Of a DNA stretch of 64,000 bases, positions 42,203-59,914 are shown one piece after another. Origin of the DNA: a virus; IMG/VR virus record IMGVR_UViG_3300032249_001192, positions 5,524 to 69,523 of that record. One strand, written 5' to 3'. The first letter of the stretch is position 1. Each line of letters begins with the position of its first letter. The notes beneath the pieces were generated by a model. It was not told where the DNA came from. It ran no database searches and saw only the letters and a program-made list of their open reading frames with translations. The translations under genes were made by a program, and so were the position numbers.

Positions 42203-42415
42203 TTAATGATTGTAGTATCTATCCCAGTCTTCCCATTCTTCGTCTTGAAGATCTTCTTTGTGTTTTTTAATCTGTTTATTTATATCTTTAGGAGAAAAAT
42301 CAATATCGTCGTAACGTGGTTTGTTACGCTTATTTTTGATTTTGTCTCTTCTGTCGAGTTTTCGGTCTTTTTCTGGAAATTCGTTGTTTGGTTTCATGGA
42401 AGTTGTAATTGCCAA
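42203..42415 (-). CDS. Small charged hypothetical protein
   Basis: Basic then acidic/aromatic tail; first gene after a sigma70 promoter. Confidence 0.5.
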   Translation of the reverse strand: MAITTSMKPNNEFPEKDRKLDRRDKIKNKRNKPRYDDIDFSPKDINKQIKKHKEDLQDEEWEDWDRYYNH

Positions 42416-42428
42416 AAGTATCTTCTGT

Positions 42429-42456
42429 ATACTAACTCATAAATTCTCTGTGTCAA
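42429..42456 (-). promoter_or_regulatory. Sigma70-type promoter (leftward)
   Basis: TTGACA-16 nt-TAGTAT with an upstream A-tract on the minus strand. Confidence 0.6.
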
Positions 42457-42481
42457 CTTTTTTTTAATGGCCAATCCACCC

Positions 42482-42510
42482 TTGACAGCATATCGAATTC
42501 GGATTAGTAT
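42482..42510 (+). promoter_or_regulatory. Sigma70-type promoter (rightward, no sense gene downstream)
   Basis: TTGACA-17 nt-TAGTAT on plus strand. Confidence 0.5.
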
Positions 42511-42561
42511 TATGCAGGTCGGTGGATATAATATATACTCTTACTACTTATCCCGGAGTTC

Positions 42562-45237
42562 TCAATTGATATACACTCTGGTTGACCTAGCGCTACTTGC
42601 ACCAGCCACATTTACTGATCTAATAGAAATATCATAATTTTTACCTCTCGTTATTGCGTAGCCGCTATTCCCATAGATAGTATAGTATAAATTTGCATGA
42701 GGAGACGAATAATTATCCCATCCTATTGGGGTGGATCCTTGGTCTTTAGCACCAGCACCAACAAATATTTGACCAGTAATAGAAGGGTCCTCTACTTGTG
42801 TAAAATTAATCAAGTATTGATAAACACCAGTTGTAAACATGTTAGGCCATTGCAGATTCACTATTGTTCCAACAGAATTTGGAAAATTAGATGATGCAAT
42901 TAATGATGGTGGGGCGGATGGTAACTCTGCATACTCGGCATAGAATTGCAATTCATTTCCGTCGCCTCTTGAATTGTTTGGAATAATGCGAATTCTATAA
43001 GGATTACCAATTGTGGATGTGGGAATAATACATTTCCATTTTGAAATACTATAATCAAAACCTATATTAGTAGTAGTTAATGTTGGAATACTAGATTGCC
43101 ACCAGTCTCCATTTGTTGCCAATTGATATTCACAACGGTAAGATACCGGAGCAACATTTTCTCCATAATAGTCTGGCGGAGCTGTCCATAAAACAGTCAG
43201 AGAATTTGAGTTTCTATTAACTGAAACATTCTTAGCATTAATAAGAAATCTATACCTACCAAGGTAGTAAGAATATCCAAATTCAAATGCATTTTGCACA
43301 TTGGTTGCTAAATAATTATACAGATTAAGATTAACTATTGAATTATTATCATTATTAACCGAACCAGGTCTCCCAGCAAAACTATACGGGACTATAGTAA
43401 CAGGCGTACAATAAGGACCAACGTTTCCGTTACTATAAACTGGAGCGATTGATATTGAATACGTTACTCCGCCTTTAAGCATTCTAACTCTATATCCATA
43501 TGATGTTATTGCTTGTAAAACTCCATATTGATTAGCATATGGGTATGGAGGAGGATTAGAATCCCAATATGAAAGACCATTAATTACCCTGTATGAATTG
43601 TTGTTATCCCAATTTATGATATATTCTTGTTTAGATGGATCTGGTTGAATAATATTATTGACTTCTGAAGCGGTAGAACCGTAAGCTCCTCTTGGATCTA
43701 TTGGTCCTCCTGCTATTTTTATTTTCCAAGAAAGAGGATATCCTATTTTAACAATACCTGATGACCAAGATATGTCTATTTCGGCGCTATTATATCGCGT
43801 ATCAGTAACAGATAAACTGCCTAATACTAACCTAACGGACAAATTCGATGCTCTTTGAGCTAGCGTTTCAGTTGGGGTTACTGTTGGTGTTGGTGTTGTT
43901 GTTGGGGTTAATGTTCTTGTTCTTGTTGGGGTAGCTGTTGGAGTTAATGTTCTTGTTATTGTTAGAGTAATTGTTGGGGTGGTTGTTGGGGTTGTGGTTA
44001 TTGTTGGAGTTATTGTTGGAGTAGAAGTTTTTGTTATCGTTGGAGTCAGTGATCTAGTTGGTGTTTGTGTGGCTGTTATGGTTGGTGTTGTTGACGATGT
44101 TATTGTTGGTGATGGCGTCGGAGTTGGAGTTCTGCTAGCGTCTGGTGTTGGAGTAATTGTTGGAGTTCTTGTTGGGGTTACTGTTTTGGTTGAACTGATG
44201 GTAATTGTTGGAGTAACAGATGGTGTAATTGTTGGCGTTTTAGTTGCCGTAATTGATGGAGTAGTAGTTGGAGTATTTGTTCTTGTTGGTGATACCGACG
44301 ATGTTATTGATGGCGTAACTGTTGATGTTGCAGTTATTGTTGGTGTTACCGTTGATGTTGGGGTGACACTTGAGGTTATGGTAAGAGTAGGCGTTACTGT
44401 AATGGTCGGAGTAGTAGTTGGCGTTGGAGTTATAGAGGACGTTACTGTTGGTGTAACGGTTGGTGTTGCTGTTATAGTCGCTGTTGGAGTTGGTGTTTCA
44501 CTTCCGGTAATTGTTATGGTTGGAGTCAACGAAGACGTTGGAGTAATTGACGGCGTTTGTGTTTGCGTGGCTGTAATTGTTGGTGTTTGACTTGGAGTAC
44601 TTGTAATCGTACTTGTTACAGTAGGAGTTATAGTACAAGTTGGTGTTGGTGTTGTTGTACAGGTACTGGTTGCTGTTGGCGTTATTGTCGATGTTGGTGT
44701 GCTAGTATTAGTTAAAGTTATGGTTTGGGTGGGTGTTTGAGTTGGTGTCGATGTTTTTGTTGGTGTTAGTGTTGGTGTTGTGCTAGCACCCGGAGTGGGG
44801 GTCCTTGTGGGTGTAGCTGTTCTAGTAGGTGTTTTACTCCTGGTAATTGTTATTGAAGGAGTTATAGAGGAAGTTACAGTACTAGTTGGAGTTACACTAG
44901 GAGTAGTTGTAATTGTTGAAGTTATGCTAGGAGTAATAGTGGGAGTGGCCGTTATTGATGACGTAATAGTAATGGTGGGAGTAATAGTGGGAGTAATAGT
45001 GATTGTTGTAGTTGGAGTTGGGCTGCGTGTTGGGGTTTTTGTAGGGGTTTTAGTAGGTGTAGGAGTTCTACCTGTACGTGTTGGTGTTCTTGTCGTAGTT
45101 ATCGTTGGAGTTATTGTTTGGGTTTTGGTTGGGGTTCTTGTTGGAGTTGGAGTTTTTGTTGGAGTTCTGGAGGGACCAAGACCAACATCACTCAATGCCT
45201 TTTCACAATTATTACAGTCGTTTGGTGACATAGTCAT
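42562..45237 (-). CDS. Mucin-like Thr/Pro-rich stalk protein with C-terminal FN3-like domains
   Basis: About 430 aa of TPT/TPS repeats, then beta-sandwich segments ([27 protein letters not shown]); no signal peptide. Confidence 0.8.
43861..45180 (-). repeat. Degenerate low-complexity repeat encoding (T/S)PT(x)T units
   Basis: Codon-diverged GTTGGTGT/GTTGGAGT-rich tract on the plus strand. Confidence 0.85.
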
Positions 45238-45429: not shown

Positions 45430-47088
45430 ATGAAATCAACCATAGTTACCGGCATATGGGATTTGGGTAGAGATTCTCTGTCTGATGGCTGGAGCAGATC
45501 ATTTGATCATTATAAAGAAAAATTTGCTGTATTACTTGATTCTTTACAAAATATTCCAACTATAGTTTTTATAGACAAAAAACATGAAGATATAGTATGG
45601 AATCATCGTAATAAAGAAAATACAGTAGTATACCACCATACTGCTAATGATTTTGATAATAATTTTTTCCCTTTCAGAGATAAGGTAGAAAAAATAAGAA
45701 CTAGCGAGCAGTGGTTATGTCAAGCAGGATGGCTCAGAGAAAGCACTCAGGCCAAATTATCTCTCTACAACCCAATGGTTATGAGTAAGATGTTCCTACT
45801 GCACAATGCCAAGGTATTTAATCCATTTAATACTGAATATATGTACTGGCTTGATGGTGGAATATCTAATACTGTTCACCCAGGATACTTTAGCCACGAC
45901 AAAGTCTTAGAAAAAATACAAGATATCACTAAAAAATTTCTATTTGTTTGTTTTCCTTATGAAACAGAATCAGAGATTCATGGATTCGATATAAAGAAGA
46001 TGAAAGAATATGCTAAATCAGAAGAGGTTAGTAGGGTTGCTAGAGGAGGATTTTTTGGTGGACATATTGACTATATAGCTGAGGCTAATAATCTATATTA
46101 TAGTCTATTAAGTGATTCTCTTAATAATGGTCTTATGGGTACTGAAGAAAGTATATTTACCCTAATGACATACTTGCAACCAGAAACCTACCAGCATGAA
46201 ATGATTAATCATGATGGTTTGTTGTCTACATTCTTCGAAAAAGTTAAAAATAATCAAACTATTATAGAAGAAACCGTAAAAAATAATCCTAGAAAAAAAC
46301 ATTCAAACAACGAAACAATATTATACATTAATGCTTTTAATTCTCCAGAACAATTACAAATGGTCTTGGATAGTTTTGAACTACATGATAACTCATTTAT
46401 TACTCAAACAAAAAAGATTCTAATAAACAATAGCACAAAAGAAGATCTCTTCAGTAAGTATGATGCCATTTGCGAAAAATACGGATTTTCAGAGCAGATT
46501 AAAAAAGGAAATTTAGGAGTTTGTCGAGCTAGACAATTTGCTGCTGAACATTTTGCAGACCTTGGTTCTAAATACATGATCTTTTTTGAGGATGACATGT
46601 TGTTAGATTATTCTATATCTAATTGTAATTTTGGTTTTAAAAAATCGACACCTAATTTATTAAGTAGTCTTATTCGTATAATGGACAATGAAGAGTATGA
46701 TTTTTTGAAATTTAGCTTTAGCGAATTTTATGGACATAACGGAGAACAGTGGAGTTGGCATAATGTTCCTTCAGAATTACGGGTAAAATATTTTGGAGAC
46801 GCAAAGAAAAAACCTCTCACCAAGTTTTCTTGCATAAAATCTTATAATGGCATACCTTATGCAGAAGGGGAGATTTACTATTCAAATTGGCCCCATATAA
46901 TAGATCAGGAAGGCAACCAAAAACTATTCTTAGATACTACATGGTCAAATCCTTTTGAACAAACGTGGATGAGTCACATATATACTCTAACAATTAACAA
47001 TAAAGTTAAACCGGCAATATTATTAGCTAGTCCAATAACACATAATAGGGTTCATTTTTATGAAGCGAACGAACGCAAAGAAAACTAA
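45430..47088 (+). CDS. HtrL/YibB-like domain fused to a GT2-like domain
   Basis: TIVTGIWDLGR, YWLDGG, GGFFGG, GTEESIF (HtrL-like); C-terminal FFEDDMLL. Confidence 0.75.
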   Translation: MKSTIVTGIWDLGRDSLSDGWSRSFDHYKEKFAVLLDSLQNIPTIVFIDKKHEDIVWNHRNKENTVVYHHTANDFDNNFFPFRDKVEKIRTSEQWLCQAGWLRESTQAKLSLYNPMVMSKMFLLHNAKVFNPFNTEYMYWLDGGISNTVHPGYFSHDKVLEKIQDITKKFLFVCFPYETESEIHGFDIKKMKEYAKSEEVSRVARGGFFGGHIDYIAEANNLYYSLLSDSLNNGLMGTEESIFTLMTYLQPETYQHEMINHDGLLSTFFEKVKNNQTIIEETVKNNPRKKHSNNETILYINAFNSPEQLQMVLDSFELHDNSFITQTKKILINNSTKEDLFSKYDAICEKYGFSEQIKKGNLGVCRARQFAAEHFADLGSKYMIFFEDDMLLDYSISNCNFGFKKSTPNLLSSLIRIMDNEEYDFLKFSFSEFYGHNGEQWSWHNVPSELRVKYFGDAKKKPLTKFSCIKSYNGIPYAEGEIYYSNWPHIIDQEGNQKLFLDTTWSNPFEQTWMSHIYTLTINNKVKPAILLASPITHNRVHFYEANERKEN

Positions 47089-53750: not shown

Positions 53751-54290
53751 TCAGCTTATTTCCATATAAACACAATAATTTCCAACATTATCAAACCATG
53801 TTCCACTATCCCATATTCCACAATATACATATCCAGAGGATGGGGCAACTATATTTCCTCCCAATCCTATATAAAAAGCATTAGTAGTAGTAAATGGTAT
53901 TGACGGTGAGTTTGTTGCAGATATAACTCCAAATACAGCGTTGTAATTGCCTATAAAAGCATTGGGAGTACCATATAGACCACGAGCATCACTAAGACAA
54001 GAACCAGCAATACAAGAAACACACCCTCTAACAGAGAAACTTATAGTCTGACCCGCTGTCACAAACTGCTGACCAATTCTTTTAAGTGTTGCTCCATCGG
54101 AATAAACTAATGATGTTTCAATGGGTAGGCACGTAATACTTTCGGCACTTATACACATTCCGGTTCGCGTGGGTGTGATTGTTGGTGTGGGTGTAGGTGT
54201 ATTTGTTGTTGTTATCGTAGGAGTCGGAGTAACGCTACTTAATGGTTTTTGAGTAGCTACTGGACAGCAATTAATATTAATAATAGTCAT
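53751..54290 (-). CDS. Thr/Pro linker plus LecA (PA-IL)-like lectin domain
   Basis: TPTPT linker; AGQTISFSVRG...IGLGGNIVAPSSGYVYCGIWD..WFDNVGNYCV resembles the PA-IL fold. Confidence 0.6.
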   Translation of the reverse strand: MTIININCCPVATQKPLSSVTPTPTITTTNTPTPTPTITPTRTGMCISAESITCLPIETSLVYSDGATLKRIGQQFVTAGQTISFSVRGCVSCIAGSCLSDARGLYGTPNAFIGNYNAVFGVISATNSPSIPFTTTNAFYIGLGGNIVAPSSGYVYCGIWDSGTWFDNVGNYCVYMEIS

Positions 54291-54311: not shown

Positions 54312-56771
54312 TTATACAATAGGATTATGCTCAAAAAAGTAAACATCTGAGTCAGCAACAACCCCATTATTAGTTACTCTACACCACAGCTTATAGTAAC
54401 CTCTGCAACTCCTATTAAACCTAATACTATTTGGATCTAATGTATCAATGGAATTAGGTATAGATCGCGTCCAACAAGGAGAAGTAAGCATAATGGGAGA
54501 AGTCGGGGATGAGCAATCTCTATCATAGTATATGGCCCACCATTCATATATTGTATTTCCCTGTGGGTTCTGAATAGTAGAGCTTACACTAAACACATCA
54601 CCATCTCTAGTAATATCAGAATTTAATGGATCAGTTATGATGCAATCACTGAGACATCGTGGGAATTGATCACTCCGTGGGTGAAACTGATTACCGTTAC
54701 ATCCATTAGTGGTCGTATTGTTTTTTGTAAAAGATATCGTGGTTGGCGGACAAATAAATGACCCCGCAACAACAATATCGTTAGGTATACATACCGCTAA
54801 TACAATATTATTGGATGGATTTTTTAAGACTACTCTTCCAATACCATTATGACACCTTTCCCCCGCACAAACCAGCTTTAATTCTGTTAAACTACTTGTT
54901 ATTATATGATTATTTATAGTAAAAACACCCTCTCTATATCCTCCGTCACCAGCATTATTTAAATTAGCTTGTCCTATTAAAATGTTATCTATATAGAAAT
55001 CAAAAATAGCTCTATTACAACTATGTCCGCCTCCGCAATTAACTGGATCATATGAGACTATTGCGGTATAGCCATACAGATCAATACCTGCAGCTAAACA
55101 TACTTCTGGTTGTGGTGGGGGTGGGGGTGGCGGCACCGCAGGTATTATTATATCTCTAATATTAGATCTTGAACAACAAGTTCTTCCCCCAATACGTAAC
55201 TGTATATTAGATGCTCTATTCCCTCCTGGAGATATTATAGAGTTTGGTATGTATAGTTTGAGAATTTTGTGATCACAACCAACAACTGCTGCTCTAGTAG
55301 GATTCGGAGTTTTTGTTACTGTGGGTGTTAGCGTTATTGTAGATGTTACCGTAGGAGTAGCCGTAACAGTTGGAGTTGCTGTTGACGTAGTTTTAATGGT
55401 GGGAGTAATCGTTAAAGTTGGAGTTGGTGTTGGAGTTGATGTTTGCGTTGCTGTGACGGTTATTGTTGGTGTTGGTGTGGGGGTAGAAAATAGACCATCT
55501 CCCACACTATTTGCACTAACACAGGTTGGATCACTATCGCTTTGAGTAGCATACTTCCAATATCCAGCATTGGTTCCTCCACCCTTATAATATGCTGCTT
55601 TATACCATTCGTTTTCCGTTGGAATGTGGTATTTTGCGCCAGGATTCCTAGCCACAGCATCTCCGGTAGTACTGCCATTTAAAGTATAGGCTCCGTCTTC
55701 AGTAGTGCTGCTGTTTTGAGACCCAGTTGGTTTTCCGTTATGTAGCCAATTACAATATCTTGCACAGTCAAACCAGCTTACATATATTACCGGCTTGTTT
55801 CCGTAATTAGTTTTTACTGAGTAAGTGTAGCTTCCACTAGCTCCTGATCTATTGATCGCCGACCCCTGAATCGAATTACTCGCCATATTGACATTGTAAA
55901 GAGCATACGAGTCAGTTGCGGCAACAGCATTCAAAAATTCAACATATTCACTATTAGTAACAAGATATTTTCCCACGGCGTAGCTGTAACCAACACTGCC
56001 TCTTCCAACTCTTCCTCCAGTATCAGGAGAGTTGTTAACATCACCCACAGTCACAAAGTTAGAAAGGACTAAAGGATTAAGTATGGAGAAGGAACTGGCG
56101 ATACGAAAACCGATGATATTGATCACTTCCGACGTGGTGGAGGCGGGTAGGCCGAGGGAGGGCGACGCCAAGTAGAATGCAGCAGCATCGCCCCAATAGC
56201 CGCCCCGCAACTCGCGAGCTGAATCATTCCACTCATAGACTTGCCCAATTTGATCATAAGTACCATATGCACTAGGTCCACCATTAGTTCCAACAGAGGT
56301 GACATTGCCATTTTTACCATCCCAATCAGCACAATAATTAAAATTAGCAGAGTTAGATCCCGGACACAATGAGTTAAATACTAATCTGTTATTTCCTCCC
56401 ATATATCCATGGTAATAACAGTAATAGCTTAATTCTGGTGGTTGTGCTCCTACTCCATTAACAGTAATTGTTACATTACCATAGTAAAAGTCATATGACA
56501 CTCCACCAACTGTTTTTGTTAGTTTATTATTAACGTCTCCAGAATATGATATAAATGATTCATAGCCTGAGTTTAAAATTGCAATAGGATGAGCAGAGGG
56601 GACTCCTGTTAAAGTATATGTACCTATTTGATATCCTAGTTTATGATCAAGATTATTAGGATCAAAACCCGGACCCTCTGCAAAAGTAAAGTTGTAATTT
56701 CCTTCAACAGCGGATACTGCTGTATTATTTCTCATACATCTAATTATCATGGTATAATATCTCCAAAACAT
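54312..56771 (-). CDS. Modular adhesin-like protein: cupredoxin-like, circularly permuted FGE-sulfatase (CLec) domain, Thr/Pro linker, Cys-rich domains
   Basis: HP...YYCYYHGYMGG; FGE motifs GQVYEW, RGG.W, IGFR, GKYLVTN.EY, PV.YVSWFD, PTENEWYKAAY; TPT tract; polyproline stretch. Confidence 0.8.
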   Translation of the reverse strand: MFWRYYTMIIRCMRNNTAVSAVEGNYNFTFAEGPGFDPNNLDHKLGYQIGTYTLTGVPSAHPIAILNSGYESFISYSGDVNNKLTKTVGGVSYDFYYGNVTITVNGVGAQPPELSYYCYYHGYMGGNNRLVFNSLCPGSNSANFNYCADWDGKNGNVTSVGTNGGPSAYGTYDQIGQVYEWNDSARELRGGYWGDAAAFYLASPSLGLPASTTSEVINIIGFRIASSFSILNPLVLSNFVTVGDVNNSPDTGGRVGRGSVGYSYAVGKYLVTNSEYVEFLNAVAATDSYALYNVNMASNSIQGSAINRSGASGSYTYSVKTNYGNKPVIYVSWFDCARYCNWLHNGKPTGSQNSSTTEDGAYTLNGSTTGDAVARNPGAKYHIPTENEWYKAAYYKGGGTNAGYWKYATQSDSDPTCVSANSVGDGLFSTPTPTPTITVTATQTSTPTPTPTLTITPTIKTTSTATPTVTATPTVTSTITLTPTVTKTPNPTRAAVVGCDHKILKLYIPNSIISPGGNRASNIQLRIGGRTCCSRSNIRDIIIPAVPPPPPPPQPEVCLAAGIDLYGYTAIVSYDPVNCGGGHSCNRAIFDFYIDNILIGQANLNNAGDGGYREGVFTINNHIITSSLTELKLVCAGERCHNGIGRVVLKNPSNNIVLAVCIPNDIVVAGSFICPPTTISFTKNNTTTNGCNGNQFHPRSDQFPRCLSDCIITDPLNSDITRDGDVFSVSSTIQNPQGNTIYEWWAIYYDRDCSSPTSPIMLTSPCWTRSIPNSIDTLDPNSIRFNRSCRGYYKLWCRVTNNGVVADSDVYFFEHNPIV

Positions 56772-58909
56772 TTGTTGTGTACTGAATAAGAATAATATCC
56801 AGGATTTGCTGGGTCACAATCAACGGCAGAACTTGGTAGTGCTGCCCAGGTGTTGCTATTATCTAAAGAGTATTCAATATCACAACAACATAGTTCGTTT
56901 TTCTCTACTTGTAATTCTACTATAATACCACCATCAACTAATGAGCCGTCTATGAATCCATCACAAACAATTATTGCTGGACAGTATGATGGAGATGGTG
57001 TTATTGTGGGGGTTGGCGTTAGTGTAGGAGTAGGAGTTGGTGTTACACATATAGATTCTAAACAATATATTCCAGAGAATACTGTCCATGAACTAGAGAT
57101 CGGTGAAGGAGAAGTAGATATTGAATCGTTATATGCTGAAGAACAATCGGTAAAATCAATGGCTCTTATTCTGAAAGTTAATGGTCTACCAGCAGTATTT
57201 ATACAGGTTCCGTCTCCTCTTATAATATCGCTACTAGTTAAAGTATACGTATAAGAAGTAATGCTTGTATTAAAAATACAAATATTGTCTACTATGTTGC
57301 CAGGTAAGCCGCTACTACCGCGACTATCTAATGTTTGTATTTGATAACCGGTCATACATGCTTGGTTACGACCATTAGTACCCTTTAACCAATCTAATAT
57401 CACTGTTGCTTCTGAACCAGATATACCAACAGATGAGCATGAAGCAGATATATTATTGACTGTTGGCGCAGCAAGTGCACAATTGGGTGTTGGTGTAGGA
57501 GTTGGACTTTGACTAGGAGAAGGGGTACAACAATTACAGTTGCTTGTATTACCTTCAAATGTCCATATTGGAGGAATATTACACTGACATGCAGTAGATA
57601 TTCCAGTTATAGTTAATCCTCCAACACAAGAGATATTAGCATTTGCTGTCCATTTATTAGCACATGATCCAGCACCAGTATATGCTACACTAGGATCACA
57701 AGTAACAGACATAAAGTATGTGTCACCACAAGCCAATGTTCCGCTACTAGTCCAATAATTAGGCATGACCTTCGTAAATAATAAGTCTAAAGATATGGTT
57801 CTGGTCACATTACTACAATTTAATACAAATGTAGTCAAACCATTCCATTCACAGCAGGATTGTTTACTTGGTGAGGGGGTTAATGTTGGAGATGCTGTTA
57901 ATGATGGAGTAGGAGTTAGTGTTCTTGTAACTGTTTGAGTTGGTGTTCTTGTTGGAGTAGGAGTACAGCAAGTACAATTAGTAAAATCGCCAATGAAACT
58001 CCAAATAGGAGGAGCATTACATTGACATGCTTCTTTTATTCCGGTAATTATTAAACCAGTAACACAGGATATTGTCAATGAGGAAGTCCATTTATTAACG
58101 CAAGAGCTGAATCCTGTGTATCTAACAGTTGGATCGCAAGTGATAGTAGCACTAAACGTATCCCCACATAATAAAGTCCCACTAGCCTGCCATCTATTTG
58201 CTGCTGTTTTGGTATAAGTTACTGGAATAACTAAATTACCACAAGAAGCATCAAATTCTAAATATGTATTACCATCCCATTCACAACAGGTAACTGTAGA
58301 TGGACTTGGAGTATTTGTTGGAGTAGCAGTAATTGTGATAGAAGGAGTAATAGAAGGTGTTACTGTGGCAGTAGCAGATCTTGTAACAGTGATTGTTGGA
58401 GTTTGACTTACTGTGATACTTGGTGTTAGCGTAGGTGTTTGCGAAGGTGTTCTTGTTTGTGTATTAGTTTGAGTAATACTAGGAGTTAGTGTAGGGGTCG
58501 ATGTAGCCGTTTGACTATTAGTGGGGGTTGCAGTTGGTGTTCTTGTATTAGTGGGGGTGTTTGTTCTAGTTGTTGTTGTGCTTGGGGTTACAGTAGGTGT
58601 TACTGTTCTTGTTACTGTTCTAGTTGGTGTTCTTGTTGGAGTAACTGTTCTAGTAACAGTAGTGCTTGGAGTTATTGTCGGCGTAAGGGTTGGTGTGGGT
58701 GTTGGTGTTTTTTTAGGGGTTTTAGTTGGTGTTGGGGTTTTAGTGGGTGTCTTAGTAGGCGTTTGACTAAGAGAATTTCTATCTATAAAAGGACACCCAT
58801 CATCCGACCTTATCCTTGGGGGTTTTGGAGTTTCTGTTGGTGTTCTGGTTGGTGTTGGAGATGGCGGAAGTATTTTCCGCTCATTTTGTCCGTTCATTCT
58901 GTTTGTCAT
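56747..58909 (-). CDS. Mucin-like Thr/Pro-rich protein with two 12-Cys repeats and an FN3-like domain
   Basis: Several TPT tracts separated by duplicated CCEW...CGDT...CDP...CQC...CxCC domains; LTFRIRAID. Confidence 0.8.
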   Translation of the reverse strand: MTNRMNGQNERKILPPSPTPTRTPTETPKPPRIRSDDGCPFIDRNSLSQTPTKTPTKTPTPTKTPKKTPTPTPTLTPTITPSTTVTRTVTPTRTPTRTVTRTVTPTVTPSTTTTRTNTPTNTRTPTATPTNSQTATSTPTLTPSITQTNTQTRTPSQTPTLTPSITVSQTPTITVTRSATATVTPSITPSITITATPTNTPSPSTVTCCEWDGNTYLEFDASCGNLVIPVTYTKTAANRWQASGTLLCGDTFSATITCDPTVRYTGFSSCVNKWTSSLTISCVTGLIITGIKEACQCNAPPIWSFIGDFTNCTCCTPTPTRTPTQTVTRTLTPTPSLTASPTLTPSPSKQSCCEWNGLTTFVLNCSNVTRTISLDLLFTKVMPNYWTSSGTLACGDTYFMSVTCDPSVAYTGAGSCANKWTANANISCVGGLTITGISTACQCNIPPIWTFEGNTSNCNCCTPSPSQSPTPTPTPNCALAAPTVNNISASCSSVGISGSEATVILDWLKGTNGRNQACMTGYQIQTLDSRGSSGLPGNIVDNICIFNTSITSYTYTLTSSDIIRGDGTCINTAGRPLTFRIRAIDFTDCSSAYNDSISTSPSPISSSWTVFSGIYCLESICVTPTPTPTLTPTPTITPSPSYCPAIIVCDGFIDGSLVDGGIIVELQVEKNELCCCDIEYSLDNSNTWAALPSSAVDCDPANPGYYSYSVHNKCFGDIIP

Positions 58910-58912
58910 TTA

Positions 58913-59914
58913 TTACAATACTTTCGCAGCTATTAAGCATCCTTTTGATACTGAGTGCAAAGGATCGGCAGCGTGCTTAACTTCTTTAATAGATAAAGGA
59001 AAATTATTCTCTAATAGTTTTTTCTTAAAGTGTTCAATATAACCACCTGCTTGGGATGTGCCACCAGCTATTACTATTGTTAGAGGTTCTTTAAACTTAG
59101 GCAAAGACTTATGATCGGTAAGTGCTGCTGATAATTGCTTGGTAGTATAATCTATTAAACGATCATAATAAGAAGATATAGCAGCTAAAATAGGGCTATC
59201 ATTATGCTGACCAACATTAAAATTCCCACCCTCCTTCTCAGCCTGTACAACACTATCTGGTTCTCCCGTGGCTACTGCGCTCATTCTGTCAACCCAATCT
59301 CCAGACTTTGTTGTAGAAAATACAACAGTCGGCTCACCATTTAGCATGACGCAAACATTAGTCATACCCGCACCACAGCTGATAGCTATTCCAGTATAAT
59401 CGTTATCTGCTAACTCAGCATAACACAAGGCTTCTGCTTCGTTAATTGATTTAGCATCATAGCCACAACTATCCAAGATAGTTTTTACCACATCTTCATG
59501 ATATCCAACATCAAAATCTTCATCTTCTTGGTCTACTGGTTGAGCAGGGACGCAGAAAACAATCTTTTCAAGGGGCTCTGAAGATTGCCCGACTACTTCC
59601 TTTAAAATAAAAGCCAATACTCTTTTTGCATCCTTCTCTTTTGCTGAAACCACTCCTTTAAACATGGGTCTTTTAGCATTGTCATTTCTTTCAATAGCTT
59701 TTTCTATAGCGTCTTGTCCAAGAATAATAAAAGATCCGTCTGCATCTTTAATAAAAACTTTACCAGCTAGACCCTTCTCTATCATCTTCGTTGCTACAGG
59801 AGTAGCCGGTTTAATGATATAAAAAGCATCTCTAAAGTCTTTATATTGTACTTTATTTTCTTTGTCTTCTGATAATACAATATAACTTGTTCCTACATCC
59901 AAACCCTTTGCCAT
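58913..59914 (-). CDS. Actin-fold ATPase (MreB/FtsA/MamK-like)
   Basis: Phosphate-1 GLDVGTS, VFCVPA, connect-1 INEAEA, phosphate-2 ISCGAGMTN, adenosine IAGGTS, connect-2 DPLHSVSKG. Confidence 0.85.
   Translation of the reverse strand: MAKGLDVGTSYIVLSEDKENKVQYKDFRDAFYIIKPATPVATKMIEKGLAGKVFIKDADGSFIILGQDAIEKAIERNDNAKRPMFKGVVSAKEKDAKRVLAFILKEVVGQSSEPLEKIVFCVPAQPVDQEDEDFDVGYHEDVVKTILDSCGYDAKSINEAEALCYAELADNDYTGIAISCGAGMTNVCVMLNGEPTVVFSTTKSGDWVDRMSAVATGEPDSVVQAEKEGGNFNVGQHNDSPILAAISSYYDRLIDYTTKQLSAALTDHKSLPKFKEPLTIVIAGGTSQAGGYIEHFKKKLLENNFPLSIKEVKHAADPLHSVSKGCLIAAKVL

Follow-up and report, generated by a model that had tools for sequence, protein, structure and literature searches.

Diversity-generating retroelements (DGRs), in which a template repeat (TR) is used by a reverse transcriptase (RT) to rewrite the variable region (VR) of a target gene, are regarded as self-contained, with the template, the RT and the targets in one genome. 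The DNA analysed here, referred to as the window, is a stretch of 64,000 nucleotides (nt) that comprises bases 5524-69523 of a 69,523-bp phage record in IMG/VR (IMGVR_UViG_3300032249_001192, here G000; rated about 50% complete). A GC-rich island in the window lies within the gene of an 819-amino-acid (aa) protein and is the VR of a DGR target. What is new is the location of its template, in GC-rich bacterial DNA, for a VR without a DGR of its own.

In Bordetella phage BPP-1, whose target is Mtd, a ligand-binding phage protein of C-type-lectin (CLec) fold is rewritten from TR to VR at adenines specifically, NNC codons arise from AAC, and the homology stops where the VR ends on its 3' side; the locus described here is similar in these respects. 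However, the TR, Avd and RT of BPP-1 lie in the phage beside the target and its VR is C-terminal, whereas none of the three occurs in the phage records searched here and the VR is placed mid-protein. A hairpin near the BPP-1 VR is described in PMC3240598, but no counterpart was found downstream of the phage or bacterial VRs of this study. With TvpA from Treponema denticola (PDB code: 2y3c), the phage target shares the FGE-sulfatase/CLec fold and a VR between RGGxW-like and IGFR-like motifs. The match of TvpA to the phage model (Z 6.0, root-mean-square deviation 3.9, 145 residues) has a Z below 8 and is weak when taken alone, and, unlike TvpA-type proteins, the phage protein has its VR-bearing C-terminal half in front of its N-terminal half.

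Wu and colleagues reportedly described, in 2018, DGRs with remote targets within one genome. The present case resembles these in that a TR serves VRs that do not adjoin the RT. However, the known remote targets belong to the same genome, whereas here the VR is in a phage of 33% GC and the TR in bacterial DNA of 60-68% GC. According to Roux et al. 2021, their survey approach would miss remote targets. A likeness is also seen to the donor plasmid avd-TR-brt of Guo et al. 2011 (PMC3240598), in which template and enzymes are on one replicon and the target is on a replicating phage; that plasmid was a laboratory construct made from the parts of one element, whereas the relation proposed here would be natural and would join a bacterial element to unrelated large phages. 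The literature searched gave no account of a phage VR that is naturally related to a bacterial TR, which does not prove that there is none.

The GC-rich island and its orthologs

The PHROG matches of the window are a DnaB-like helicase, a UvsX-like recombinase, PhoH, ribonucleotide reductase, dCMP deaminase, head maturation protease, a sigma factor and a clamp loader, and therefore the record represents a large tailed phage. The features of the target gene are listed below; L- and G-numbers denote the other loci and genome records that were compared with G000.

54312-56771, minus strand: target gene, 819 aa (open reading frame (ORF) list; Pfam; module conserved in viral loci)
56126-56225, no strand: core of the GC-rich island, with 66% GC the top 100-nt window of the 64 kb (next best elsewhere 0.55)
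56095-56222, minus strand: VR, ~128 nt, by local alignment to positions 6-124 of the L141 TR
56094-56111, minus strand: last codons of the VR on its 3' side (G-F-R-I-A-S), the end point of TR/VR homology in bacterial and phage copies
56112-56198, minus strand: hypervariable codons between RGG and IGFR, aa 192-220 (codon table, ortholog identities)

The interval 56121-56220 has a GC content of 66.0%, against a mean of 33.6% for 100-nt windows (standard deviation 0.062, z=5.2), and only 0.009% of the 100-nt windows in the 64 kb, all of them on the island, are equally or more GC-rich. A first-pass annotation, made from the sequence alone, had put this interval at ~66% GC in a genome of about one-third GC and had read the island as spanning ARELRGGYW...IIGFRIASS. 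Both readings are borne out by computation, and the minus-strand ORF at 54312-56771 encodes exactly this stretch as aa 185-227 of 819, between the RGGYW and IGFR motifs of an FGE/C-type-lectin module. A possible second variable loop, which it had placed at 55850-55890, turned out to be ordinary, as its GC content of 46% is equalled by 23% of the 41-nt windows of the gene.

The GC content at codon positions 1/2/3 is 0.61/0.64/0.76 in the island and 0.42/0.50/0.26 in the whole gene. Therefore, the GC excess is largely synonymous, and the difference at the third position (GC3; 0.76 vs 0.26) rules out amino-acid composition as the cause of the island. Its coding strand is poor in A (13/105 bases). 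An ancient GC-rich remnant was also ruled out, since the synonymous sites of the flanks are saturated and the fixed codons of the island are conserved in an alignment of 14 copies.

When viral contigs were scanned with aa 1-440, 72 loci were obtained, in which the conserved unit is aa ~135-427. The closest orthologs belong to about 12 different AT-rich phages of 30-40% GC; their homologous patch has a GC content of 0.51-0.66 and a GC3 of 0.57-0.85, and in more distant paralogs the GC3 of the patch is 0.02-0.47, mostly below 0.3. The junctions between AT-rich DNA and the island recur in independent assemblies from many samples. In the 14-copy alignment, GC-rich fixed codons are kept even at synonymous sites, while the intervening codons differ at their first two positions and retain C at the third. 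For codon positions 1/2/3, the pairwise identity in the patch is 0.48/0.46/0.64, compared with 0.88/0.88/0.54 in the conserved upstream flank, and position 3 of the variable stretch is C in 56% and G in 30% of cases among the 14 orthologs. Judged from the alignment, this pattern is the reverse of ordinary protein evolution, and it is the one that would be expected from repeated rewriting off a single template with AAC codons. The hypervariable codons (aa 192-220) are predicted to encode the ligand-binding loop of the CLec-type fold.

One relative of 151.8 kb (L017, in record G017) has at least eight tandem or clustered FGE-like units within 22 kb, with a GC content of 0.26-0.48 and no GC-rich patch, and the TR matches nothing in its genome. 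In G009, a 100-nt window of 0.64 GC at ~45851-45950 encodes Gly-X-Y collagen-like repeats and is not a VR.

The bacterial template and the adenine pattern

A 27-nt motif of fixed positions, taken from the phage alignment, was used to search metagenome contigs. It recovered 68 loci with 54 distinct copies, which comprise four TRs (L102, L111, L128, L141), 48 VRs in high-GC DNA, one VR of phage type (L149) and one mutated copy with the flank of a TR (L119). The four TRs carry AAC at the NNC sites, as the phage alignment had predicted, with differences at 0-2 of 32 A sites, and their 3' flank is unlike that of the VRs. Every recovered locus lies at 58-68% GC except L149, at 37% GC, and all five TR-flanked copies are in contigs of 64-66% GC with PEP-CTERM targets.

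The template is part of a bacterial cassette, for which Pfam gives the order FGE-sulfatase + PEP-CTERM target with a C-terminal VR, bAvd, RVT_1 RT of 376 aa, and TR. The RT frame ends just upstream of the TR (L141, L111, L120, L102; RVT_1 E 2e-21 to 6e-23), and its assignment to the DGR type is based on this profile and its place beside the TR. bAvd (PF22296; E 1.6e-21 and 2.5e-21) is found between target and RT in L141 and L120. The FGE domains of the bacterial targets are canonical (Pfam profile 25-254), in L128 the TR is followed by another target, and bacterial VRs with one or two extra codons occur. In species-representative genomes the same motif gave 10 loci, in metagenome-assembled genomes (MAGs) of Planctomycetia/Planctomycetota, Pirellulales, Chthoniobacterales (a 532-kb contig) and Kuenenia and in short contigs binned to two actinobacterial groups. 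The copies in Planctomycetota and Chthoniobacterales MAGs are VR-like; one of the loci (L172, a Planctomycetota MAG) holds the TR, and the cassette RT is present there at 95% identity. TR-like copies (E<=1e-10) are present in 9/401 sampled genomes from the phylum of G025 and 8/401 from that of G021, and the MAGs with copies hold one to four each.

At L119:1388-1414 (minus strand, on the same 7608-nt contig as L120), a copy downstream of the RT has the TR-type 3' flank, yet it is changed at 16/32 A sites vs 2/92 other sites; either its own complementary DNA (cDNA) overwrote the template, or reads of TR and VR were mixed during assembly. A fragment of an ISL3-family transposase (L102:875-1288, minus strand; E 1.9e-15) lies just downstream of the TR, which hints that the cassette is mobile.

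With the 124-nt TR of L141 (32 A) as reference, mismatches of each phage VR were counted at A sites and at other sites, with the following result.

L149: A 17/32, other 0/69 (Fisher p=7e-11)
L032: A 18/32, other 4/92
L011: A 13/31, other 4/90
L010: A 17/32, other 6/92
L006: A 16/32, other 7/88
L037: A 21/32, other 8/92
L016: A 18/32, other 8/92
L009: A 14/32, other 11/92
G000: A 20/32, other 14/87, plus 9 gap columns (Fisher p=2e-6)
L003: A 15/32, other 14/92
L007: A 18/32, other 15/92
L002: A 20/32, other 17/82
L015: A 15/32, other 18/90
L004: A 17/30, other 22/91

The differences are thus concentrated on the adenines of the template. In four copies that belong to other paralogs or to relatives further away, 24-46% of the non-A sites are mismatched. 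The 48 bacterial VRs differ from the TR at 837/1517 A sites and at 176/4363 other sites (4.0%); therefore, by these counts, the freshest phage VRs stand no further from the template than the bacterial ones do. L149 and L010 are 90.5% identical over 895 nt, and the VR of L149 is perfectly template-like whereas that of L010 has six non-adenine changes, which suggests that rewriting took place after the two lineages split.

The identity between phage VRs and the TR starts within a few bases of the point where that of the bacterial VRs starts, and it ends at the same ...CTC GCA AG, after which the base is T in phage and bacterial VRs and C in the TR. On either side of this tract, the phages have AT-rich DNA that does not resemble the bacterial flanks. 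The VR of G000 is changed at 16% of its non-adenine sites (8/14 of these changes are GC-to-AT), has nine extra bases (three codons) compared with the TR, and ends in ATC GCC AGT where the TR and fresh VRs have CTC GCA AG; the extra codons and the altered 3' end are shared with L002. Because of these three traits, a former target fits better than a current one. The G000 VR is probably such a former target, in which the altered 3' end may have stopped retrohoming, or it may be served by a TR variant absent from the searches made, since bacterial VRs with extra codons do occur. The simpler reading is that it is no longer refreshed and is drifting to the composition of its genome.

No RT was found with the RVT_1 profile in the record of the window (0/1) or in the whole records of its relatives (0/20), nine of which are at least 90% complete. 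These completeness values were estimated by CheckV, and terminal repeats are present in a single relative, G020, whose copy lacks a GC-rich patch. The bacterial RT, used as a protein query, matched 0/15 VR-bearing phage records, compared with 95% identity (E 8e-236) in a control MAG. In G000 itself, about half complete, there is no RT homolog and no bAvd, a BLAST of the record against itself returned only the island, and a repeat finder reported nothing there. Adenine-tolerant scans for a TR gave at best 9 non-A mismatches in 60 in the record; when run on the 20-kb loci that hold 23 GC-rich patches, and on G009 and G010 over their full length, they gave only A-rich chance matches. As a DNA query, the TR matched 14/20 phage records, five of them at least 90% complete; there was one match each, the VR, and no second template-like copy, except that G013 was matched twice owing to two VR-bearing paralogs. 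The usual layout of a DGR, in which the VR shares its genome with the TR and RT, was not seen in the phage records searched.

In viral contigs, a first motif returned three known VRs and one chance match in a high-GC phage, a 30-mer across the L149 junction had no match, and a 21-mer from L009 found only TRs of other DGR families and none of the phage/bacterial cassette type. Four unrelated viral contigs of higher GC (L095-L098) carry TRs of another DGR family, which have only the first 21 nt in common with the L009 VR.

The first-pass annotation had inferred a DGR variable region in mid-protein, with NNC-rich codons derived from template AAC, and had seen no TR or RT in the 64 kb. BLAST, the adenine-tolerant scan and the RVT_1 profile extend this absence to the 69.5-kb record, and the near-identical repeat, differing at template adenines and accompanied by an RT/Avd, that it proposed to look for has its counterpart in the TR with AAC at the NNC sites, beside an RVT_1 RT and bAvd. 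Its suggestion of diversification in trans or from a remote locus is supported, with the template in bacterial contigs and not at a remote phage locus. It had left the target as 'current or former', of which the partial decay of the G000 VR favours 'former'.

How the phage tract may have been rewritten

The island was probably written, as the VR of a DGR target, from a bacterial TR by adenine-mutagenic reverse transcription, with retrohoming in trans. For this, the phage would replicate in a cell that carries the bacterial DGR, so that these bacteria would be its hosts, and transfer would occur as cDNA inside the infected cell. The adenine-mutagenised cDNA made from the TR would replace the homologous tract of the phage gene, and the replacement would reset the GC-rich fixed codons and randomise those derived from AAC. 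Such an event has a laboratory precedent, since plasmid-borne avd-TR-RT can retarget a VR on a replicating phage (Guo et al. 2011, PMC3240598). On balance, it seems plausible that this retrohoming takes place between genomes in nature, with cassettes of freshwater Planctomycetota/Verrucomicrobiota rewriting the ligand-binding gene of large AT-rich phages that infect them. In one reading of such a relation, the phages exploit the diversifier of the host without an RT of their own; in the other, the bacteria defend themselves by scrambling a phage adhesin. Decayed phage VRs, including that of G000, would then belong to lineages that lost or escaped the link.

Several observations weigh against retrohoming in trans. 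A phage of 33% GC in a host of 60-68% GC is unusual, and the freshwater Planctomycetota and Verrucomicrobiota, to whose MAGs copies of the cognate DGR have been binned, are no more than candidate hosts. GenBank phages gave no match to the module, and the ribonucleotide reductase and UvsX-like proteins are less than 50% identical to those of cultured phages, which are therefore too distant for inference of the host. No hypervariability within a population emerged from the runs, which consist of assembled (Logan) contigs only; the likely source run gave no contig of 99% identity, and the contigs of relatives that map on G000 cover the flanks and not 56156-56199. Identical or near-identical records across samples share their patches (L007/L008/L043; L013/14/15 differ only outside the patch), and these records have the more decayed VRs. 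Since a copy has to agree with the search motif at 22 specified bases, the recovered set is biased towards TR-like copies. No consistent hairpin is present in the 60 nt downstream of the phage or bacterial VRs (z -3.0 to +1.7, mostly near 0). Lastly, the link of G000 itself to the L141-type TR is looser, with 14/87 non-A changes, nine gap columns and frame-breaking gaps placed by the aligner, and its record covers only about half of the genome.

An insert in another of the phages also concerns the question of hosts. In G010 (38.6% GC), ~700 nt at ~70% GC with a small ORF lie between two paralogous genes (L085:2700-3420, ~42300-43020 of G010), and this insert looks like a recent uptake from a GC-rich organism. 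A comparison with 401 Planctomycetota genomes gave one marginal 41-nt match only and no DNA link.

An exchange of VR cassettes would yield the same boundaries and the same adenine pattern as retrohoming. Here, the phage tract would be swapped by homologous recombination with bacterial VR DNA that was already diversified, and no reverse transcription on phage DNA would be involved. The conserved ends of the VR (~27 nt on the 5' side and ~20 nt on the 3' side) would act as short homology arms, and the UvsX-like recombinase encoded in the window may help. The terminal stretches are identical in phage and bacterial VRs, and AGT is the final triplet of phage and bacterial VRs alike, where the TR reads AGC. 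However, arms of this size are very short, 0/14 phage copies reach into the GC-rich bacterial flanks, and the phage would still have to be present in a DGR-bearing cell, so that the exchange, the main rival of retrohoming, is considered unlikely. The first-pass annotation had kept a recombined host fragment as its fallback, which survives only in this narrower form, as exchange with bacterial VR DNA.

The phage lineage could also have its own DGR, with RT and TR in the unsequenced half of the genome or in unassembled parts of the relatives. The record is only about half complete, the completeness of the relatives is known from CheckV estimates only, and remote targets within one genome are already documented in Roux et al. 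2021. On the other hand, the five VR-bearing relatives that are at least 90% complete are without RVT_1, a homolog of the bacterial RT or a second TR-like copy, adenine-tolerant scans found no TR anywhere along G009 and G010, and each of the five TR-flanked copies is in a contig of 64-66% GC with a PEP-CTERM target. Given these near-complete relatives and the GC content of the TR-bearing contigs, a phage-borne DGR is therefore quite improbable. It is harder still to credit an origin without any retroelement, whether from local composition, from selection on RNA or DNA structure, or as an assembly chimera of phage and bacterial reads. Some k-mers of the island occur in abundant bacterial VRs as well and could in principle mislead an assembler, but the same junctions occur in independent assemblies and the pattern of NNC and fixed codons fits a real TR. 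Moreover, the RNA fold of the island is no better than that of shuffled sequences (z=-0.66), and the adenine bias is significant in both G000 (p=2e-6) and L149 (p=7e-11).

Architecture of the target protein and significance

The 819-aa protein starts with an N-terminal domain (aa 1-134), which is followed by the FGE/CLec-like module (aa ~135-427), a linker rich in Pro and Thr (~430-500) and a C-terminal region rich in Cys. The module is made of two parts.

56067-56369, minus strand: C-terminal half of the FGE/CLec fold, aa 135-235, which carries the VR and is placed first (BLASTP, Pfam)
55491-56054, minus strand: aa 240-427, the N-terminal half of the FGE/CLec fold, which comes second (BLASTP; Pfam profile 34-133)

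In BLASTP against the bacterial target, query residues 11-97 align with target residues 330-416 (47% identity, E 1e-18) and query residues 109-297 with target residues 137-323 (54% identity, E 7e-57). The Pfam FGE-sulfatase match (PF03781; E 8.5e-16, 58.8 bits, cut-off 23.3) covers aa 260-406 and profile positions 34-133 only, downstream of the island; when scanned alone, the VR-bearing half matches profile positions 159-191 with 19.4 bits (E 9e-4), below the cut-off. Mainly on the evidence of these alignments, it appears that the two halves stand in swapped order in the phage protein and not in the canonical one. An AlphaFold2 model of aa 130-440 (31 sequences) is compact, with pLDDT 83.7 and pTM 0.88, and has low confidence in the variable loop (around model residues 74-78). 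Foldseek found no match in the PDB at E<=1e-3, and VIA-align gave matches of modest Z, namely CarF 6.4, TvpA (2y3c) 6.0 and EgtB/PvdO/pFGE ~5, mostly on model residues 100-298, as well as Mtd on model residues 13-101 with a Z of 2.1.

The N-terminal domain (aa 1-134; 56370-56771) has no Pfam match, and its relatives in other viral contigs, several giant-virus-named MAGs among them (L062-L064, L071), are 40-58% identical over ~100-130 residues. Four minus-strand genes (42562-45237, 53751-54290, 54312-56771 and 56747-58909) encode long Pro/Thr-rich linkers and Cys-rich domains, the linkers being large families of direct repeats spaced 12/18 nt, and their sole PHROG match is phrog_15511, of unknown function. 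The adjacent 333-aa ORF at 58913-59914 (minus strand) has no PHROG match at 1e-5; by eye, its N-terminus may resemble actin/ParM-like ATPases.

The target domain with swapped halves and a mid-protein VR broadens the known architectures of DGR targets. In addition, the VRs of these large, uncultivated freshwater phages form a natural series from fresh (0% non-adenine change) to decayed (16-24%), in which the upkeep or loss of a target may be studied. If the transfer occurs in infected cells, a hypermutation machinery would act across the boundary between virus and host, surveys that demand an RT beside the VR would miss such targets, and a TR-VR match could serve as a marker of virus-host linkage, comparable to a CRISPR spacer match, for phages without cultured relatives.

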